This document shows positions 5,600-18,610 of a stretch of 19,014 nt of DNA, piece by piece. Both the position numbers and the translations under genes were made by a program. Below the pieces are notes generated by a model. It saw only the letters and a program-made list of their open reading frames with translations, was not told where the DNA came from and ran no database searches. How positions within the stretch are numbered: position 1 is the first letter of the stretch; each line of letters opens with the position of its first letter. The stretch comes from an archaeon (GTDB taxonomy: Archaea > Iainarchaeota > Iainarchaeia > Iainarchaeales > CSSED10-239), in contig DAOOUC010000012.1 in the NCBI GenBank assembly GCA_035390665.1, positions 1 to 19,014 on the forward strand, written 5' to 3'.

Positions 5600-6406
5600 A
5601 TGAGTCCTATAAGATTACCTAAGGCATTTAGTTTTTTAAGAAGGCCAGTTAAAAAAAAACAATTAACTAAAAGACCATTTGGTAAAGAAAGAGAATTGCA
5701 AAAACAAGTAAAAGAAATGGTTGATAAAAAAAGAGAAGACACTTGGAAAAGAAAAGGGACAATAGAAAGATATTCTGAAATATTTGAAAGCAGATTAAAT
5801 TCTGAGCCAATAGATTTTTTAATAAAAAAAGAAAATAAAAATCCAGAAATCTTAATTGGTGGAGCAGCAAGAGGAGAATATATTGTTCCATTAAGAAAAG
5901 AGCTTATAGAAAGAGGGTTACATCCAGAGATTGATGTTTTTAATATTAGTCCAACAAATGGAACTGCAAACCAGATTATAAGAAGAGACCTATCTATTGG
6001 GCAAGCACTTGAAACAATATCTAGTAAACCAAAAGAATATTCTTCTCAAATTAATAAATTAAAAGAAAGATTTGATTTAGCTATTTTTGCAAGCGGTGCT
6101 GGAATGCATACACTATATCCTGCATTTAATGTATTTAATGCTGCTTTAATGCTAAAGAAAGGCGGAAGAGCATATATAGAAATACCAACACAAAGATTTT
6201 TAGAAATACAAAGTATAAAAAATAAAGAAACATATCCTTCTTCTCAAGTAAAAAGAATACAAAAACAAATTTCAGAAATAGATAAAGTTGTTTTGAGAAT
6301 GTTAAGTGCTTATTCTAAAAGAGATGTAAGTAATGAATATGAAATAAAGAAATTATTAAGATCTAAAACAAGAAATGGAATATTTATTAGAATTGAAAGA
6401 AAATAG
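5600..6406 (+). CDS. Hypothetical protein with a very basic N-terminus and a possible degenerate Rossmann/methyltransferase-like core
   Basis: Long ORF with coding-like composition. The spacing of ILIGGAARGEY...IDVFNIS...FDLAIFASGAGMH...LKKGGRAYIE loosely mimics class I methyltransferase motifs I, II and post-III, but no canonical GxGxG is present. Confidence 0.5.
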   Translation: MSPIRLPKAFSFLRRPVKKKQLTKRPFGKERELQKQVKEMVDKKREDTWKRKGTIERYSEIFESRLNSEPIDFLIKKENKNPEILIGGAARGEYIVPLRKELIERGLHPEIDVFNISPTNGTANQIIRRDLSIGQALETISSKPKEYSSQINKLKERFDLAIFASGAGMHTLYPAFNVFNAALMLKKGGRAYIEIPTQRFLEIQSIKNKETYPSSQVKRIQKQISEIDKVVLRMLSAYSKRDVSNEYEIKKLLRSKTRNGIFIRIERK

Positions 6407-6505: not shown

Positions 6506-6595
6506 ATGAATATTAAAAAAAAAGCCCTCTCACCAATAATTGCAACAATACTTTTAGTTGTTGTTTCTGTCATTCTTGTAACCGTAATTATGTCT
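6506..6595 (+). other. Class III (prepilin/preflagellin-type) signal peptide
   Basis: Basic residues KKK, then a small residue (Ala7), then LSPIIATILLVVVSVILVTVI. This matches the archaeal [KR]-[GA] / L-S-P-[VI]-I-A-T-x-L-L pilin N-terminus. I predict peptidase cleavage between A7 and L8. Confidence 0.7.
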
Positions 6596-7927
6596 TTTGG
6601 ACAAAGTTTTACTGCTCAAGGGTTAGATAAGACAAAAGACATAAAAGAACTATCACAATCAGATGCAGAACACTTTGTTTACCCTAAAACTTTTTCTAGT
6701 GGAGTGATGCAATTTAATTATTCTCCTCCAAACAACAGTTTTGGAGATGTTCAAATAACTAAATACAAGATACTATATGATAATAATGAAACATCTGAAA
6801 TAACCTTAACTAATCCACACACACTAAGCACAGGAACAAATCTTTTAAATCTTGAAGATTTTTCTGATCAAAATATAACCTCTAATAAATTTACAATAAT
6901 TTTAGAAACAGAAGACAATGAATATATTACTTTAAAAAACATAACAAATCCTTTTCCTTATGTTGAACCAGAACCCTATATTCCCCAAGAATATTTTACA
7001 GAAGCATTAAGTCCAGGAACAATGGCAGATGATGCAACGATAGGTACACAGGCCTGGAGTAGTCTGGATTATTCAAAAGCAAGTGATAATAGCTATTCTA
7101 GTGTTAATATGGGGAACGTTGTGAATGGTACATTTTCGGGATATACAACCCATTATCTTAAAGCAAATAATTTTGGTTTTAATATTCCTACTGGCGCAAC
7201 AATAAATGGTATAAAAGTAGAAATTGAGAAATATACCTTTGGGCCATATATTAGTTGGGATTTAAAAATAGTAAAAGCAGATGGATCTATAGGAGATACA
7301 AATATGGGAAGTGGAACTTGGCCAACACCATCAGATCCAAATACCTATGAAACATATGGTTCAGATACAAATGTGTGGGGGGAAACATGGACTGCAGAAA
7401 ATATTAATGATTCTGATTTTGGAGTAGTAATCTCTATTATTGGTCTTTCACAGATGGGGGGATGTTTAAATGAAAATACTTTAATAGCAACGGAATTTGG
7501 GCAGAAAGCAATAACTGATTTAAATATTGGGGATTTAGTTATTTCTTATAATGAAAATACAAAACAATTAGAATTAAAACCAATAATAAATATTTGGTCG
7601 GTTCCAATATCTAATGTAAATAGCAGATATTTTTATATTTATTACAATAATGGGCAATTAATAAAAGCCACAGAAAATCATAAATTCTATATTGATGGAA
7701 ATTATGTGAGAGCAGATGAATTAAATGTTGGGGATAAATTATTATCTAATGATTTTAAAGAATATCCTATAGAAAATATAGAAATTGTAGAAAACACAAC
7801 AGATTATGTTTGGGATATTGAAGTAGAAGATAATCACAATTTCTTTGCTAATAATATTTTAGTTCATAATTTAAACTATTATGCTTATGTAGATCATATT
7901 CGTATGACTGTTTATTATACAAATTAA
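6506..7927 (+). CDS. Secreted archaeal type IV pilin-like protein with an embedded Hint (intein-like) domain
   Basis: N-terminus MNIKKKALSPIIATILLVVVSVILV is a class III signal peptide pattern. The middle is a beta-rich S/T/N/G region with several N-x-S/T sequons. Residues 320-455 form a Hint domain, followed by an 18-aa tail. Confidence 0.8.
   Translation: MNIKKKALSPIIATILLVVVSVILVTVIMSFGQSFTAQGLDKTKDIKELSQSDAEHFVYPKTFSSGVMQFNYSPPNNSFGDVQITKYKILYDNNETSEITLTNPHTLSTGTNLLNLEDFSDQNITSNKFTIILETEDNEYITLKNITNPFPYVEPEPYIPQEYFTEALSPGTMADDATIGTQAWSSLDYSKASDNSYSSVNMGNVVNGTFSGYTTHYLKANNFGFNIPTGATINGIKVEIEKYTFGPYISWDLKIVKADGSIGDTNMGSGTWPTPSDPNTYETYGSDTNVWGETWTAENINDSDFGVVISIIGLSQMGGCLNENTLIATEFGQKAITDLNIGDLVISYNENTKQLELKPIINIWSVPISNVNSRYFYIYYNNGQLIKATENHKFYIDGNYVRADELNVGDKLLSNDFKEYPIENIEIVENTTDYVWDIEVEDNHNFFANNILVHNLNYYAYVDHIRMTVYYTN
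7463..7870 (+). other. Mini-intein-like Hint domain (136 aa, no homing endonuclease insert)
   Basis: Block A is C320-LNENTLIA and block B is ATENH (T-x-x-H). Block F is YVWDIEVEDNHNFFANN and block G is ILVHN455. The next residue is Leu rather than Cys/Ser/Thr. Confidence 0.8.
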
Positions 7928-7930
7928 TTT

Positions 7931-10771
7931 TTATTTCTTTTCTAATAACTTTTTTAAAAACTCACCAGTATAACTTTTCTTTACCTTTGTGATTTCTTCA
8001 GGTGTTCCTTTGGCAATTATTTCTCCACCTTTTTCTCCACCTTCTGGTCCAAGGTCAATGATATAGTCTGCTGACTTTATGACATCAAGGTTGTGTTCAA
8101 TAACAACAACTGTGTTTCCTTTTTCTACAAGTCTGTTTAAAACATCAATAAGTTTTTTAACATCATGGAAATGAAGACCTGTTGTTGGCTCATCGAGAAG
8201 ATAGATGGTGTTACCTGTATCTCTTTTGGAAAGTTCTTTTGTTAATTTGATTCTTTGAGCTTCTCCACCCGAAAGAGTAACTGAACTTTGCCCAAGCTTA
8301 ATGTAACCAAGACCAACATCTACCAAGGTCTGTAACTTTCTTTTAATATTTGGATGATTTTCAAAGAAAAGATAAGCTTCATCAACAGACATGTTTAAGA
8401 CATCAGCAATGTTTTTTTTCTTGTATAAGATTTCAAGAGTCTCTGCATTATATCTTTTTCCTTTACATTCTTCACAGTCAACATAGATATCAGGCAAAAA
8501 ATTCATTTCAATCTTAATCTGTCCATCACCTTGACAGGCTTCACATCTTCCACCTTTAACATTAAAAGAAAATCTTCCAATATCATATCCTCTAAGTTTT
8601 GCATCATTAGTCATTGCAAACATTGTTCTGATATCATCAAATAACTTAGTGTATGTTGAGGGGTTTGATCGAGGAGTTCTTCCAATTGGCGATTGATCAA
8701 TAGAAATTACTTTGTCAATAGATTTTGGAACAATTATTTCTTTTACTTTACCAATATCCATTTTTGATTCATAAAATTTAGTCATCAAGTATGGATAGAG
8801 TGTTTCATAAACTAGAGAAGACTTCCCTGAACCAGAAACACCAGTAACACAAGTAAAAACTCCTGTTGGAATCTCTAAATTAATATTTTTAAGATTATTT
8901 TCTTGTGCTCCAAGAATTTTAACAAAATCTTTAGGTTGTCTTCTAATCTTTGGTGTGTGAATAAATTCTGTTCCTGCAAGATATTGACCTGTTAAAGACT
9001 TTTTATTTTTTTCAATTTCTGTAGGAGTGCCACAAGCAACAACTTCTCCACCATAGATTCCGGCCCCTGGGCCCATGTCAATAACATAGTCTGCTTGTCT
9101 TATGGTATCTTCATCATGTTCAACGACAACAACAGAATTACCAAGATCTCTTAATTTACAAAGAGTATCAATTAATTTTTGATTATCTCTTTGATGTAAA
9201 CCAATAGATGGTTCATCAAGAACATACAAGACCCCGGTTAAATTTGTTCCTAAATTTGTGGCTAACCGAATTCTTTGTGCTTCTCCTCCTGAAAGAGAGC
9301 CAGAAGCTCTTGAAAGTGTTAAATAACCAAGACCAACTTTTTCTAAAAACTCTAAACGAGAATTAATTTCTTTAAGAACATGTGCTGAAATTTCTTTTTG
9401 TTTATCATCAAGTTTTATTTTTTTAAAAAATTCACGGGCATTGGAGATTGAAAAATCAGATATGTCAATAATAGATTTATCACCAATCTTTACAGCTAAA
9501 ATTTTCCTTTTAAGCCTTTTACCAAGACAAGCAGGACAAGGAGAAGTTTTCATATACTTTTCCATATCTTGTCTTCTATAATCAGATTCTGTTTGTTTGT
9601 AAAGACGTTGAGATTGAGGAATTAATCCTTCCCAAGTACCTGTGTAATTAAAAGATGAAGTTCCATTTTTTCCTTCAAGATTAAAGGCAATATTGTCTTT
9701 TGAGCCATACATAATAATATTATATTGTTCTTTTGTTAAATCTTGAATTGGAGTCAAAGCTGAAAAACCATAATGTTTTGCTATTGTTGCTAGATGTTGT
9801 CCACGCCAACCATCCACTGCATTTCTATAAATCATTATTGCTCCGTCAGCAATTGACTTAGTTTTATCTGGAATTATTAAATCAGGATCAAAATCCATCT
9901 TAAAACCTAAACCAGAACACTCTTCACAAGCACCAAAAGGAGAATTAAAAGAAAACATTCTAGGCTGTAGTTCTTCAAAGGAAAGACCACAAACAGGACA
10001 AGACATCTTAGAAGAAAAAAGTTTTTCTTTTGCTTTGTCTTTGTTTTTTTCAAAATCTTTAACAGTTATTACTCTTAATAATCCATCTGATTTGTTTAGG
10101 CCTTGCTCTATGTCTTGATAAAGTCTTGTTCTGTCGTCACTTGGTATTATTCTATCAATAACAATATCAATATCATGCATTCTATATCTATCAATCTTTA
10201 TTTCTTCATCTGTCCTTGCAATTTCTCCGTTTATTCTTACTCTTAAGAAACCTTCTTTGTTTAGATCTGAGAATAATTTTTCATAAGTACCTTTTTTCTT
10301 TTGAACAATTGGAGAAAGAATGAAAATTTCGTCAGAGTATTCCTTTAAAATATTCTCTGTTATCTTTTGAGCAGATAAAGGTTGTATAGGGATATTGTGA
10401 TCAGGACAATAAGGAATTCCAATTCTTGCATAAAGCAAACGAAGATAATCATAAATCTCAGTAACTGTACCAACAGTTGAGCGAGGGTTCTTAGAAGTAC
10501 TCTTTTGTTCTATTGCAATTGCTGGAGACAACCCTTCTATAGAATCCACATCAGGTTTTTTCATAACCCCTAAGAACTGTCTAGCATAGGCAGATAAAGA
10601 CTCCATATATCTTCTTTGTCCGTCAGCATAGATGGTATCAAAAGCTAAAGTTGACTTTCCAGAACCTGATAGTCCAGTAATCACTACAAGCTGATCTCTA
10701 GGTATCTCTACATCAATGTTTTTTAGATTGTGCTCTCTGGCACCCTTTATTATAATACTTTTATAAGCCAT
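7931..10771 (-). CDS. uvrA: Excinuclease ABC subunit A
   Basis: 946 aa. Two Walker A sites (GLSGSGKST and GVSGSGKSS), two ABC signatures (LSGGEAQR twice) and zinc modules (CPVCG...CEECSGLG and CEACQGDG...CEECKGKRY). The N-terminal IKGAREHNLKNI is also typical of UvrA. Confidence 0.97.
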   Translation of the reverse strand: MAYKSIIIKGAREHNLKNIDVEIPRDQLVVITGLSGSGKSTLAFDTIYADGQRRYMESLSAYARQFLGVMKKPDVDSIEGLSPAIAIEQKSTSKNPRSTVGTVTEIYDYLRLLYARIGIPYCPDHNIPIQPLSAQKITENILKEYSDEIFILSPIVQKKKGTYEKLFSDLNKEGFLRVRINGEIARTDEEIKIDRYRMHDIDIVIDRIIPSDDRTRLYQDIEQGLNKSDGLLRVITVKDFEKNKDKAKEKLFSSKMSCPVCGLSFEELQPRMFSFNSPFGACEECSGLGFKMDFDPDLIIPDKTKSIADGAIMIYRNAVDGWRGQHLATIAKHYGFSALTPIQDLTKEQYNIIMYGSKDNIAFNLEGKNGTSSFNYTGTWEGLIPQSQRLYKQTESDYRRQDMEKYMKTSPCPACLGKRLKRKILAVKIGDKSIIDISDFSISNAREFFKKIKLDDKQKEISAHVLKEINSRLEFLEKVGLGYLTLSRASGSLSGGEAQRIRLATNLGTNLTGVLYVLDEPSIGLHQRDNQKLIDTLCKLRDLGNSVVVVEHDEDTIRQADYVIDMGPGAGIYGGEVVACGTPTEIEKNKKSLTGQYLAGTEFIHTPKIRRQPKDFVKILGAQENNLKNINLEIPTGVFTCVTGVSGSGKSSLVYETLYPYLMTKFYESKMDIGKVKEIIVPKSIDKVISIDQSPIGRTPRSNPSTYTKLFDDIRTMFAMTNDAKLRGYDIGRFSFNVKGGRCEACQGDGQIKIEMNFLPDIYVDCEECKGKRYNAETLEILYKKKNIADVLNMSVDEAYLFFENHPNIKRKLQTLVDVGLGYIKLGQSSVTLSGGEAQRIKLTKELSKRDTGNTIYLLDEPTTGLHFHDVKKLIDVLNRLVEKGNTVVVIEHNLDVIKSADYIIDLGPEGGEKGGEIIAKGTPEEITKVKKSYTGEFLKKLLEKK

Positions 10772-11148: not shown

Positions 11149-11973
11149 TTATTTACCTATTAATTTTTTATCTTCAGAGTTAATTTTTCTTTCAAGTTTT
11201 TTGATATCTTCTGCTGGTGGCAAATTTTCTGGCTTAATTCCGCTTTTACCAAGAACTTCTCTAACATCTTTGTTATTTTTCACGTGTTCGTATGTGATTT
11301 TAGGTTCTCCGTGAAGATCTTCTTTTTTAACATTAAAGTTTGTTATTTCAGTTGCTAGGTCTTTAGCTTTAATTGTAATTGTGGGTAAAAACTCAGCTAA
11401 TGGTCTGTTAGCTGGAACATTAAGCTTTTGTTTCATATCTTGAGTATTGTAACCACCAAATAAAGCCCAATCGCCTTTGCTTCTTATTCTTGCAAAGCCA
11501 TCTCTATCAACTCCTCTTTCATATATTAGTTTAGATAATTCAGTTTCTGTTTCTGTAAGTTTATTCCTTGCAACTATTCTTTCAATCAATTCTAATCTTT
11601 GTTCAACAAGTTCTTGTTTTCTAGTTTGTAATGCAAAATAGCTTTGAGCAAAAGCAATTACTTCCTTTCTTGGATCTCCGTTTTGAGCAATTAAGTAACA
11701 AGCATATCTTGTAAGTAAAATATCATCAATTCCTCTAGTTCCCCCTTTCCCTAAACCTATCATTTTGTTGACGTCAACAAAATGATCCGATATGCTTTGT
11801 TTAGCGTTTTTACAGGACTCTTTTGCTTTATCAATTACTTGATTAAAGTTTCTCCATTCGTTATAATCCAGAAGTTTTTGTAAATCTCTTGCATACCAAT
11901 ATTCCACCTCTTTCTCTTTATGAACATAGTCTTCAAAAGACTTTTGTAGTTTTCCAATAATTAGTTTATCCAT
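11149..11973 (-). CDS. dinD: DNA-damage-inducible protein D homologue (DinD family)
   Basis: [32 protein letters not shown]...SDHF...[36 protein letters not shown] closely matches the conserved DinD core as I remember it from E. coli DinD. The 274-aa length is also similar. GGTGAT lies upstream of the ATG. Confidence 0.8.
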
Positions 11974-16717: not shown

Positions 16718-17859
16718 AGATACTTGTATTTTCCCCGCCATTTCTTGGACACCTTAACATTCTTAGAAAAATGATAGAAAATAACAGAGATATAGAATTT
16801 AAACTAGTTATTACTGGTTGGAAAAATATTATAATTGATGGCGAACTTAATCTAAATAAATCAACGCTTACAGAAACAGATCCGGCATTATGGACTTTTA
16901 AAAGAACTTATGAGCTTTTAGATGATTGTCTAGAAGTTACAAAAACATATAATCCTGATTTAATAATTTATGATTTTTTTTGTTTAGAAGCATATTTTGT
17001 TGGAAGATTATTAAATATTCCAGCTTGGGCGTCTATTCCATCAATGCTTGGACCAAATGATAAAGATGATTATCTTAAAGAAAAAATAAAATTGCCAGAA
17101 AATCAAGAATATTTAAAAAAATTAGAAGAAAAATATAAGATAAAAATAGAAGATATAGAAATGATCTCAGATGGTTTGTATTTTCCAGAAAAAAACAACA
17201 TAGTTTGGTCATATCCAGAAATTATTACAAAAGACTTTATGACTGGAAGAAAAGAAAATAAATTTTATTTTGTTGGAAACTATAATACTTATAGAAAACA
17301 AGAAAAAGAAATTATTTATTTTTCCTTTGGTACAGTTGTAATGAATAATTTATGGAACCAACAAGAAGAAACAAGAGAATTACTTAAAGAATTTATTCAA
17401 GAAGTTTCAAAAAAATTAAAAGAAGAAAAAGTAATCTTTGTTACTCAAGGAAAACCAATATTAGAAAACTATCCAAGCAACTGGGAGATAAAAGAAAATG
17501 TAGACCAAGTGGAGTTTCTTTCAAGATCAAAATTATTTATAACCCACGGAGGAAACAATAGCTTTCATGAATCTTTTTTACAAAAAGTGCCAATGATTGT
17601 TATCCCTTTCTTTGGAGACCAGATACTTACTGGGCAAAGAGTTGAAAAATTAGGAATTGGAATAAATCTAGGAATAGATACTTCAATAGACACAAAGAAA
17701 TCAAAAGTATTTCTAAATAAAGAACTAGCAAACAGATTAACACAAGCAGTAAAAGAAATACTAAATAATCCCAAATATCAAAACAAGCTTGATAATTTTA
17801 AATTAACCAATGATAATTTGAATGAGTTAATTAAGAAACAGTTTTCTTCTGTTTTTTAA
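16714..17859 (+). CDS. UDP-glycosyltransferase (GT1, MGT/UGT-like)
   Basis: N-terminal ILVFSPPFLGHLN. FITHGGNNSFHESFLQKVPMIVIPFFGDQ fits the UDPGT signature as I recall it (H-[STAGC]-G-x2-[STAG]-x3-[STAGL]-[LIVMFA]-x4-P-[LIVMTA]-x3-P-x3-D-Q). ATGA overlap with the upstream gene. Confidence 0.85.
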   Translation: MKILVFSPPFLGHLNILRKMIENNRDIEFKLVITGWKNIIIDGELNLNKSTLTETDPALWTFKRTYELLDDCLEVTKTYNPDLIIYDFFCLEAYFVGRLLNIPAWASIPSMLGPNDKDDYLKEKIKLPENQEYLKKLEEKYKIKIEDIEMISDGLYFPEKNNIVWSYPEIITKDFMTGRKENKFYFVGNYNTYRKQEKEIIYFSFGTVVMNNLWNQQEETRELLKEFIQEVSKKLKEEKVIFVTQGKPILENYPSNWEIKENVDQVEFLSRSKLFITHGGNNSFHESFLQKVPMIVIPFFGDQILTGQRVEKLGIGINLGIDTSIDTKKSKVFLNKELANRLTQAVKEILNNPKYQNKLDNFKLTNDNLNELIKKQFSSVF

Positions 17860-17947
17860 ATTATTTGATTTTAAATTCTATTTGGTCATTTATGATATCT
17901 CGTAACTCAATCACCTCTATCTAAAAGATTTAGAAAAAAAGGCAAAA

Positions 17948-18610
17948 TCACATTAGTTTCTTCTCTAGTTCTTTATAGTAATCAAGACTTAGTTTTCTTA
18001 TATTTTTTAGTATTGGAATGGCGATTTTTCTATCTTCTAAAAGATTTAATCTTTCTTCAAACCAAGTTATCCAAACATCTTTTCCTGATTTTTTTGTTTG
18101 ATAGATTATTTCTTCTAAAACAATATCCCAGTCAGGGTTTGTTCTAGCAATTGATTGACAATCATCAATATCTCCATCTCTGTCTGTTATGCTTTTGAAA
18201 ACTAAAATGTCTTCTAAGGAACAAGCAAATAGCTTAATGTTTTTGTATTCTTTTATTAGTTTTGCCCTCTTTATCATATTTTCACTAAGGAAAAGATTAT
18301 TACACACAATTTTATTAAAGATATCAAATCTATAATTATCTTTGATTAGTATATTTTCTAAATTTAATTTATGGTATTCTCTTGTTGGTTTTTCATGTGT
18401 GAAATCATTTTTTTTGAGTGTATTAATCAATGATTCATATTCTTCTTTTGAGTTAACTATTAGATCTATGTCTTTTGTTCCTTGTTTTGCGCTGTGGTAT
18501 AGTAGTACTGCTCCACCAATTAGGTAGATATCTATTTTCTTAGAAATACTTTGATCCATTTTTTCAAATGCTTCAGAGATTTGAGTAAAGTCTGTAATAT
18601 ATTTTTCCAT
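17948..18610 (-). CDS. Nucleotidyltransferase-fold protein (DUF6036/AbiEii-like)
   Basis: IYLIGGAVLLYHSAKQGTKDIDLIV (nt 18464-18517) matches the minimal NTase G-G/S ... D-x-D pattern. The downstream LEDILVFKSITDRDGDIDD resembles the second conserved block of AbiEii-type proteins. The family name comes from memory, not a search. Confidence 0.55.
   Translation of the reverse strand: MEKYITDFTQISEAFEKMDQSISKKIDIYLIGGAVLLYHSAKQGTKDIDLIVNSKEEYESLINTLKKNDFTHEKPTREYHKLNLENILIKDNYRFDIFNKIVCNNLFLSENMIKRAKLIKEYKNIKLFACSLEDILVFKSITDRDGDIDDCQSIARTNPDWDIVLEEIIYQTKKSGKDVWITWFEERLNLLEDRKIAIPILKNIRKLSLDYYKELEKKLM

Follow-up and report, generated by a model that had tools for sequence, protein, structure and literature searches.

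The 19,014-nt stretch of archaeal DNA analyzed here (hereafter the window; contig DAOOUC010000012.1 of assembly GCA_035390665.1, from the Iainarchaeales) encodes a 473-residue pilin-like surface protein that is interrupted, just before its last beta-strand, by a complete 136-residue HINT domain resembling the A-type bacterial intein-like (BIL) domains. The residue that follows the domain (position +1) is a Leu, rather than the Cys, Ser or Thr of class 1 inteins. We favor the reading that this HINT domain is catalytically competent and probably excises itself, with the head domain of its host protein either re-ligated or nicked but still assembled. The argument turns on the following features, all given in window positions:

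6506-7927, plus strand: whole gene of the 473-residue pilin-like surface protein with nested HINT domain, from the open reading frame list and its translation
7463-7870, plus strand: 136-residue HINT domain (residues 320-455), an A-type BIL-like mini 'intein' according to profiles and to PDB and fold matches
7463-7465, plus strand: Cys320 (TGT), HINT residue 1, following Gly-Gly, predicted nucleophile of the N-S acyl shift
7670-7681, plus strand: block B, T389-E-N-H392 (ACA GAA AAT CAT)
7805-7855, plus strand: block F, YVWDIEVEDNHNFFANN, with Asp437 and His444, aligning with the same block in the DnaX and DnaB mini-inteins
7856-7870, plus strand: block G, ILVHN, in which His454-Asn455 is the predicted site of Asn cyclization and C-terminal cleavage
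7871-7873, plus strand: +1 codon TTA, encoding the non-nucleophilic Leu456
7871-7924, plus strand: C-extein, residues 456-473, LNYYAYVDHIRMTVYYTN, forming the last beta-strand of the head (model strand 459-472, predicted local distance difference test score (pLDDT) ~95)
7925-7927, plus strand: stop codon of the 473-residue protein gene

Profiles, sequence matches and the predicted fold agree on the identity of the domain. It scored 63 bits (E = 4.5e-17) against Pfam PT-HINT (PF07591, gathering cutoff 27.7), aligning to positions 1-136 of the 137 in the model, and 50.3 bits (E = 3e-13, cutoff 35.8) against Pfam Intein_splicing, and it reached the cutoffs of the NCBIfam intein N- and C-terminal models TIGR01445 and TIGR01443, the latter (intein_Cterm) matching block G with 27.2 bits against a cutoff of 15.6. 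Its best sequence match in the PDB was the Spl DnaX mini-intein (2.5e-11), and CthBIL4 (2LWY) also matched (4.6e-10). The HINT part of an AlphaFold model of the whole protein (mean pLDDT 86.4, built on a 69-sequence alignment) was mostly above pLDDT 90 and superposed on BIL and intein structures with target template modeling (TM) scores of 0.8-0.87; the top Foldseek matches in the PDB were Tetrahymena BUBL BIL2 and CthBIL4 (target TM 0.82-0.87), followed by mini-inteins and the Hedgehog HINT domain. The first-pass annotation of this DNA had read a complete HINT domain with blocks A, B, F and G at this position and proposed profile searches and structure prediction as checks; both recovered the HINT fold, and the PT-HINT, Intein_splicing, NCBIfam, PDB and fold matches all point the same way. 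The automatic annotation of the protein also already reads 'Hint domain-containing protein'.

CthBIL4, an A-type BIL characterized by experiment, scored 178.6 bits against PF07591 and a true mini-intein (Spl DnaX) gave no match, while against Intein_splicing our domain scored the same (50 bits) as a true intein. Judged by these scores, the sequence is intermediate between A-type BIL and intein. By profile, fold and catalytic pattern taken together the domain is nonetheless best classed as an A-type BIL, as had been proposed: it passes PF07591, a model that CthBIL4 matches and the mini-intein does not, and its best fold matches are BIL domains. The B-type is ruled out by the terminal His-Asn of block G (ILVHN) and by the TIGR01443 match. 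The guanine-plus-cytosine fraction of the HINT DNA (7463-7870) is ~0.23, against 0.32-0.37 in the DNA for the head (7000-7460), which may reflect either recent acquisition or a composition rich in Asn, Lys, Ile and Tyr, and which we do not use as evidence.

The nine residues after the domain, LNYYAYVDH, include no Cys, Ser or Thr, and the first such residue 3' of the HINT domain is a Thr at +13, within a tail of 18 residues. Were the +1 codon a misread codon for Cys, Ser or Thr, the domain would be an ordinary intein, but at least three separate metagenome samples yielded contigs encoding the identical 473-residue protein, which rules out an assembly error as the source of the +1 Leu, and homologs likewise have no nucleophile there. 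We assembled, from the closest matches, a set of 44 homologous HINT copies located at the same insertion point of the same head domain (site 1). Position 1 was Cys in 31 of these and Ser in 13; the block B Thr (Thr70 of the HINT domain) was kept in 41 of the 44, the other three having Ser, and the block B His (His73) in 39; block F had Asp in 36 copies and Asn in eight, with its His in 40; and the terminal His-Asn was present in every copy. Positions -1 and +1, by comparison, were unconstrained: +1 was Pro in seven copies, Ala and Phe in five each, Leu and Ser in four each, Val, Gln and Ile in three each, Asn and Tyr in two each, and single other residues in the remainder, but never Cys. Ser or Thr thus occupied +1 in only five copies, leaving 39 of the 44 non-nucleophilic, which bears out the earlier claim that this domain has no +1 nucleophile. 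As +1 is unconserved and so seldom Ser or Thr, class 1 splicing is not the route for which these domains are designed, and purifying selection on the residues predicted to carry out the N-S acyl shift and Asn cyclization is evident from the alignment.

The pattern extends well beyond the close set. Searched exhaustively, 1.84 billion cluster representatives yielded 8,877 related HINT domains at E <= 1e-3 and 773 at E <= 1e-10, where a word-indexed search with the HINT domain alone had given 12 candidates and one match; among the full copies examined from these more distant representatives, 205 of 219 ended in His-Asn, and 14 did not. Mean identity to the copy in the 473-residue protein was 55% for the HINT domain vs. 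49% for the head, the HINT value being higher in 27 of 39 pairs; some pairs were discordant, suggesting partly independent histories for the two parts. HINT domains that share a site usually have their nearest relatives there too, at site 1 in 37 of the 44 cases. HINT domains also occupy at least two other loops of the same head, one before the VKIVKxDG strand and one before the HYLKATNFGF strand.

HINT domains of this kind also occur in tandem. Arrays of two to eight, joined by short Lys-Gly linkers (VHN/KGG/CF), were observed in P0069, P0134, P0151, P0165, P0170, P0176, P0180, P0187 and other proteins, often directly after a signal peptide or inside giant proteins of up to ~5,000 residues; 55 of the 263 full-length HINT copies (from 255 proteins) were in such arrays.

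Around the HINT domain, the gene comprises three further features:

6506-6613, plus strand: residues 1-36, MNIKKKA/LSPIIATILLVVV, predicted class III (prepilin-type) signal peptide and hydrophobic pilin helix
6677-6946, plus strand: residues ~58-147, beta-sandwich 'stalk' of the pilin module, with strands in the model
6986-7462, plus strand: residues 161-319, N-extein part of the head, an uncharacterized beta-sandwich, ending in strand 306-314

The open reading frame, coordinates and residues quoted in the first-pass annotation all held on inspection of the DNA and its translation. Residues 161-319 together with 456-473 make up a single beta-sandwich head of ~170 residues, for which the Pfam search gave no match. 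When the two flanks were joined in silico, more than 60 of the top 120 matches were uninterrupted proteins to which they aligned without a break (positions 5-176). Homologs lacking the 136-residue insert, whose existence had been suggested as something to look for, are thus plentiful, and one of them, P0014 (325 residues), comes from a related archaeal genome (locus L001) and reads FGVVLSAYVYYDIAYVDHIRITVYYTN at the insertion point. Strands 300-308 and 312-324 of its model (pLDDT 90) are joined in a tight hairpin, and strands 306-314 and 459-472, which flank the HINT domain in the 473-residue model, are equivalent to these two. With equivalent strands on either side of it, the HINT domain evidently sits in the turn of the last beta-hairpin; the earlier placement of the insert just before the final strand is upheld, the insert-free protein having a closed hairpin at exactly that point. 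The last-strand motif [VI]DHIR[IM]TVYY is conserved equally in homologs with and without HINT domains. Cys320 is the only cysteine in the 473-residue protein, and P0014 has none.

The head resembles, weakly, the CBM22/16/35 jelly rolls (from the P0014 model) and phage tail-fiber modules. It has a clear viral homolog within a 1,310-residue protein (BFVD; E = 1e-14, 30% identity, root mean square deviation 1.5 Å over 172 columns) and a second in a 200-residue protein of an uncultured Caudovirales (BFVD; entries A0A5Q2W5G0, A0A6J5M8F0). Given the viral homolog and the likeness to tail fibers we refer to the head as adhesin-like or receptor-binding-like, and the model-based comparisons hint that receptor-binding modules may have been exchanged between phages and cellular pilins. 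Among GTDB species representatives the head was found in records labeled candidate phyla radiation (CPR)/Patescibacteria, DPANN lineages, Chloroflexota, Bacteroidota and others. A permuted form, with YLKATNFGF...VEIE after rather than before VKIVKxDG...WGETW...FGVV, was seen in P0004, P0007, P0048, P0099, P0052, P0050, P0044 and P0101. In P0103, P0112, P0093, P0102 and P0109 a beta-rich insert of ~150-165 residues, without a Pfam match, occupies the loop ahead of the HYLKATNFGF strand, where P0051, P0067 and P0084 have a HINT domain.

The proposal that the host protein is an archaeal pilin-like protein holds up. Its N-terminus fits the class III motif by eye (KKKA/LSPIIATILLVVV; KKKA/LSPIIATILL is followed by a helix), with predicted cleavage of the signal peptide after Ala7, and scored just under threshold against Pilin_N (23.3 bits, Pfam cutoff 25.2) and TIGR02537 (19.6 bits, cutoff 20); the UpsA profile matched in part (27 bits, cutoff 130). 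In the AlphaFold model residues 10-36 form a helix and residues 58-147 a beta-domain, an arrangement that fits the pilin fold, in which an N-terminal helix packs on a beta-sandwich. P0014 has a homologous N-terminal module (E = 1e-49 to the window), and its model matches archaeal type IV pilus subunits of Pyrobaculum (8fk7, probability 1.0; 6w8u, 0.99). Pilus assembly genes were absent from the window; a HINT-containing homolog, P0002, adjoins a T2SSE-family ATPase locus (L002).

At the P0002 locus of L002 (7608-9992) the P0002 gene lies directly downstream of an M48 peptidase gene, beside which, on the opposite strand, is the T2SSE-family (PilB/FlaI-like) ATPase gene; the window has no such genes near its pilin gene.

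The stalk module (6506-6985, residues 1-160) is 79-86% identical in proteins with entirely different heads, such as P0016, P0017 and P0004, which looks like cassette-style swapping of heads at the Pro/Glu-rich linker. The heads carried on nearly the same stalk in P0016, P0017, P0004, P0007, P0042 and P0043 include GLUG repeats, DUF5018 and the permuted head, and P0019, with a HINT-containing head, shares a near-identical stalk with P0056, whose head is HINT-free. The same head with its HINT domain is borne both by archaeal-type N-termini (P0002, P0003, P0005) and by bacterial prepilin-type N-termini (PF07963) of CPR proteins (P0008, P0010, P0027, P0028, P0033).

We infer the processing of the protein, its products and its timing from the conservation of the catalytic residues. 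That the HINT domain is autocatalytically active we regard as likely; that the head ends up intact, whether ligated or nicked and still held together, we think rather likelier than not. Processing would follow export and folding. The Gly319-Cys320 bond would first be converted to a thioester through Cys320, assisted by Thr389 and His392 of block B; Asn455 would then cyclize and cut the Asn455-Leu456 bond, with the help of His454 and His444. No branched intermediate can form without a Cys, Ser or Thr at +1, and instead the freed alpha-amine of Leu456 would attack the thioester, re-ligating the hairpin by BIL-type splicing. This is the order of events described for type A BILs, namely thioester formation, Asn cyclization and then aminolysis of the thioester by the amine of the C-terminal fragment (PMC4031507). 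Should hydrolysis win over this last step, the head would carry a nick but keep its last strand in the sheet; in either outcome the 136-residue HINT domain would be removed and the head would come to resemble those of the insert-free relatives. Both the active site of the HINT domain and the hairpin of the host would keep the junctions together, with the amine of Leu456 beside the thioester, and this double hold should favor re-ligation.

Several points weigh against this proposal. Cleavage products outweigh ligation in the A-type BILs tested in vitro (PMC4031507), and a review states that A-type BILs cannot ligate (PMC7765530). The Pro found at +1 in seven of the 44 copies would re-ligate poorly, being a weak nucleophile. 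That the hairpin is closed in the precursor is predicted from secondary-structure assignment and homology, and for every member of the family processing is deduced from sequence. Finally, insert-free heads evidently work, and a benefit of the HINT domain to its host is not apparent.

The same observations lend themselves to a second explanation, in which the HINT domain is a switch that only cleaves: it would cut at one or both junctions without re-ligation, as regulated shedding, activation or inactivation of the head, for instance by loss of the last strand, which could unfold the adhesin, or by N-terminal cleavage that releases the HINT domain together with that strand. Cleavage products do dominate in characterized A-type BILs (PMC4031507; PMC7765530), +1 is Pro in seven of the 44 copies, and several members (e.g. 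P0028 and P0033) have long Pro/Gly-rich linkers after the His-Asn. We still think this explanation unlikely, since the last strand is as well conserved with a HINT domain as without one, and many homologs function with no HINT domain at all; conserved, and an integral 14-residue strand of the sandwich, the last strand is evidently still needed.

Alternatively the insertion might be permanent, the HINT domain never being processed in vivo and serving as an extra module with a structural or binding role, or persisting as a neutral passenger. A head of this family can tolerate such a load, as the ~165-residue non-HINT insert in another loop of P0103 illustrates, and the adjacent N- and C-termini of the HINT domain would let it fit into a hairpin turn without strain. 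Residues whose use is purely chemical have been kept, however: Cys or Ser at position 1 and the terminal His-Asn in 44 of 44 copies, and the Thr and His of block B and the His of block F in most. Cys320 is likewise retained in an otherwise Cys-free protein, and degenerate copies are rare (14 of 219 without His-Asn), making permanent insertion quite improbable in our estimation.

A further possibility is that the Gly319 thioester is handed off, captured by an external amine or hydroxyl on a surface molecule of a partner cell, a lipid or another pilin. Tetrahymena BUBL BIL2, the best structural match, ligates its N-extein to the epsilon-amines of Lys residues in other proteins (PMC8616854). The host protein here is moreover exported and pilin-like, with an adhesin-like head, and the family occurs in lineages labeled CPR and DPANN. 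Such lineages are generally episymbiotic, and by analogy the thioester could conceivably be a chemical warhead through which a DPANN or CPR pilus becomes covalently tethered to its host cell, a scenario to which we give only a slim chance. Hedgehog HINT domains resolve their thioester with cholesterol, but nothing like the sterol-recognition region of Hedgehog, which recognizes the adduct, is found here. The conserved C-terminal strand and the insert-free homologs point to a plain intact head, and the likeness to BIL2 is no greater than that to other BILs and mini-inteins; hand-off in any form is hence very unlikely.

Two last candidates fail outright. An ordinary class 1 mini-intein, its +1 Leu being a sequencing error or its nucleophile lying downstream, would accord with the very intein-like blocks F and G (VWDIEVEDNHNFFANNILVHN vs. 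VYDIEVEHNHNFVANGLLVHN of the Spl DnaX intein), the above-cutoff Intein_splicing score and the insertion into a conserved domain with uninterrupted homologs, but is effectively refuted by the +1 data: the identical protein in at least three samples, no nucleophile at +1 in 39 of 44 copies, and the nearest downstream Ser, Thr or Cys at +13. A pre-toxin HINT domain that releases a C-terminal toxin is suggested by the name of the best Pfam family ('Pretoxin HINT') and by one homolog annotated 'polymorphic toxin-type HINT domain-containing protein', but is refuted by the architecture, since just 18 residues follow the domain and these make up the last strand of the head, there is no sign of a toxin-delivery architecture such as that of Rhs or CdiA, and the next gene is a convergent uvrA just past the stop codon, which leaves no immunity gene.

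The surroundings of the pilin gene are partly conserved. L001 has the order pyrB, pyrI, methyltransferase, DUF362, a hypothetical gene and the pilin gene (P0014), with uvrA further on; in the window, the convergent uvrA begins 4 nt after the stop codon of the 473-residue protein gene. The neighbors in the window are 80-91% identical to their L001 counterparts, but the 473-residue protein is only 52% identical to P0014, showing that this is a fast-evolving locus and that P0014 corresponds to it by position without being strictly an allele. A second fast-evolving gene lies just upstream of the pilin gene, at 5600-6406 on the plus strand; it encodes a 268-residue hypothetical protein with no Pfam or PADLOC match and 37% identity to its L001 counterpart, against 80-91% for the flanking genes. 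At L001 the insert-free pilin gene is beside uvrB (7229-10747), which contains a canonical intein that includes a LAGLIDADG endonuclease (Intein_splicing, LAGLIDADG_3); neither uvrB nor uvrC is present between the pilin gene and uvrA in the window. A Bro-N/ORF6N-domain protein adjoins uvrA both in the window (11149-11973, minus strand) and in L001 (16788-17236), and in L002 another (17657-18490) is encoded ~6 kb downstream of the gene for the HINT pilin. The sole PADLOC match was a trivial one, of block G to a homing-endonuclease model, and the tRNA scan found none.

The family combines BIL chemistry, with no +1 nucleophile, and an intein-style lifestyle of site-specific nesting with insert-free relatives, and so forms a bridge from inteins to BILs. 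With it the range of BIL-type domains reaches past the bacteria, to archaea and to the type IV pilin-like surface proteins of ultra-small episymbiotic DPANN and CPR organisms, in which pili and adhesins are believed to bring about attachment to the host. The same module of head and HINT domain on archaeal and bacterial prepilin N-termini suggests, from the sequences, exchange across domains of life. The family is, to judge by its homologs, sizeable and shared with CPR bacteria, so that the 473-residue protein is not unique. If its members do re-ligate, they would provide dozens of natural HINT domains able to join peptides whose +1 residue is L, P, A, F, V, Q, I, N or D, a repertoire that would matter in practice for traceless protein ligation; that the family amounts to a natural, efficient, nucleophile-independent splicing system tolerating almost any +1 residue is a tentative idea and, we judge, on the doubtful side.

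Among known systems, the pre-toxin HINT domains (CdiA, Rhs, MafB) share the Pfam family and an occurrence in exported proteins, but have a toxin domain and immunity gene where this domain has neither. Hedgehog/Hog shares the HINT fold (matches 1at0 and 6tyy), the N-S acyl shift at Cys1 and a thioester that is resolved without a +1 nucleophile; unlike Hog, which has no terminal Asn and no C-extein but a sterol-recognition region, this domain has His-Asn and a C-extein strand. With BUBL BIL2 of Tetrahymena thermophila (6Y75/6TMM), the top Foldseek match (E = 6e-11, target TM-score 0.82), it shares the prospect that an amine, and not the side chain of a +1 nucleophile, resolves the thioester, as described for BIL2 (PMC8616854), but BIL2, located between ubiquitin-like domains, ligates to the side chains of Lys residues in other proteins, while the flanks here are a pair of strands from one domain.

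Class 1 mini-inteins (Spl DnaX, Npu/Ssp DnaB, gp41-1) are of the same size, have near-identical block F and G signatures, and are likewise nested site-specifically in conserved domains with insert-free alleles in related genomes. They differ in having the +1 Cys, Ser or Thr that is missing here and in 39 of the 44 site homologs, and in residing in replication or repair enzymes rather than in an extracellular pilin-like host. A BIL of Magnetospirillum has been rescued by exchanging its +1 Tyr for Cys.

Our literature search, with incomplete coverage and therefore as absence of evidence only, turned up no account of a HINT or BIL domain in a pilin-like protein from DPANN or CPR. The closest relatives described remain the A-type BILs, exemplified by CthBIL4 of Clostridium thermocellum (PDB 2LWY; target TM-score 0.87), with which this domain has in common the HINT fold, Cys or Ser at position 1, the block B T-x-x-H and the terminal His-Asn, together with the lack of a homing endonuclease and of a conserved +1 nucleophile, and an exported, fast-evolving host protein. 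It departs from CthBIL4 in its lower PF07591 score (63 vs. 179 bits) and in matching Intein_splicing as well as a true intein does. According to a review, BILs are bacterial and occupy hypervariable regions of proteins that are not themselves conserved (PMC7765530). The host gene here is fast-evolving, at 52% identity vs. 80-91% for its neighbors and with heads swapped on a conserved stalk, yet the insert lies in a conserved domain: unlike the BILs described so far, this HINT domain belongs to an archaeal organism and interrupts a conserved fold at a fixed hairpin, for which uninterrupted homologs exist.

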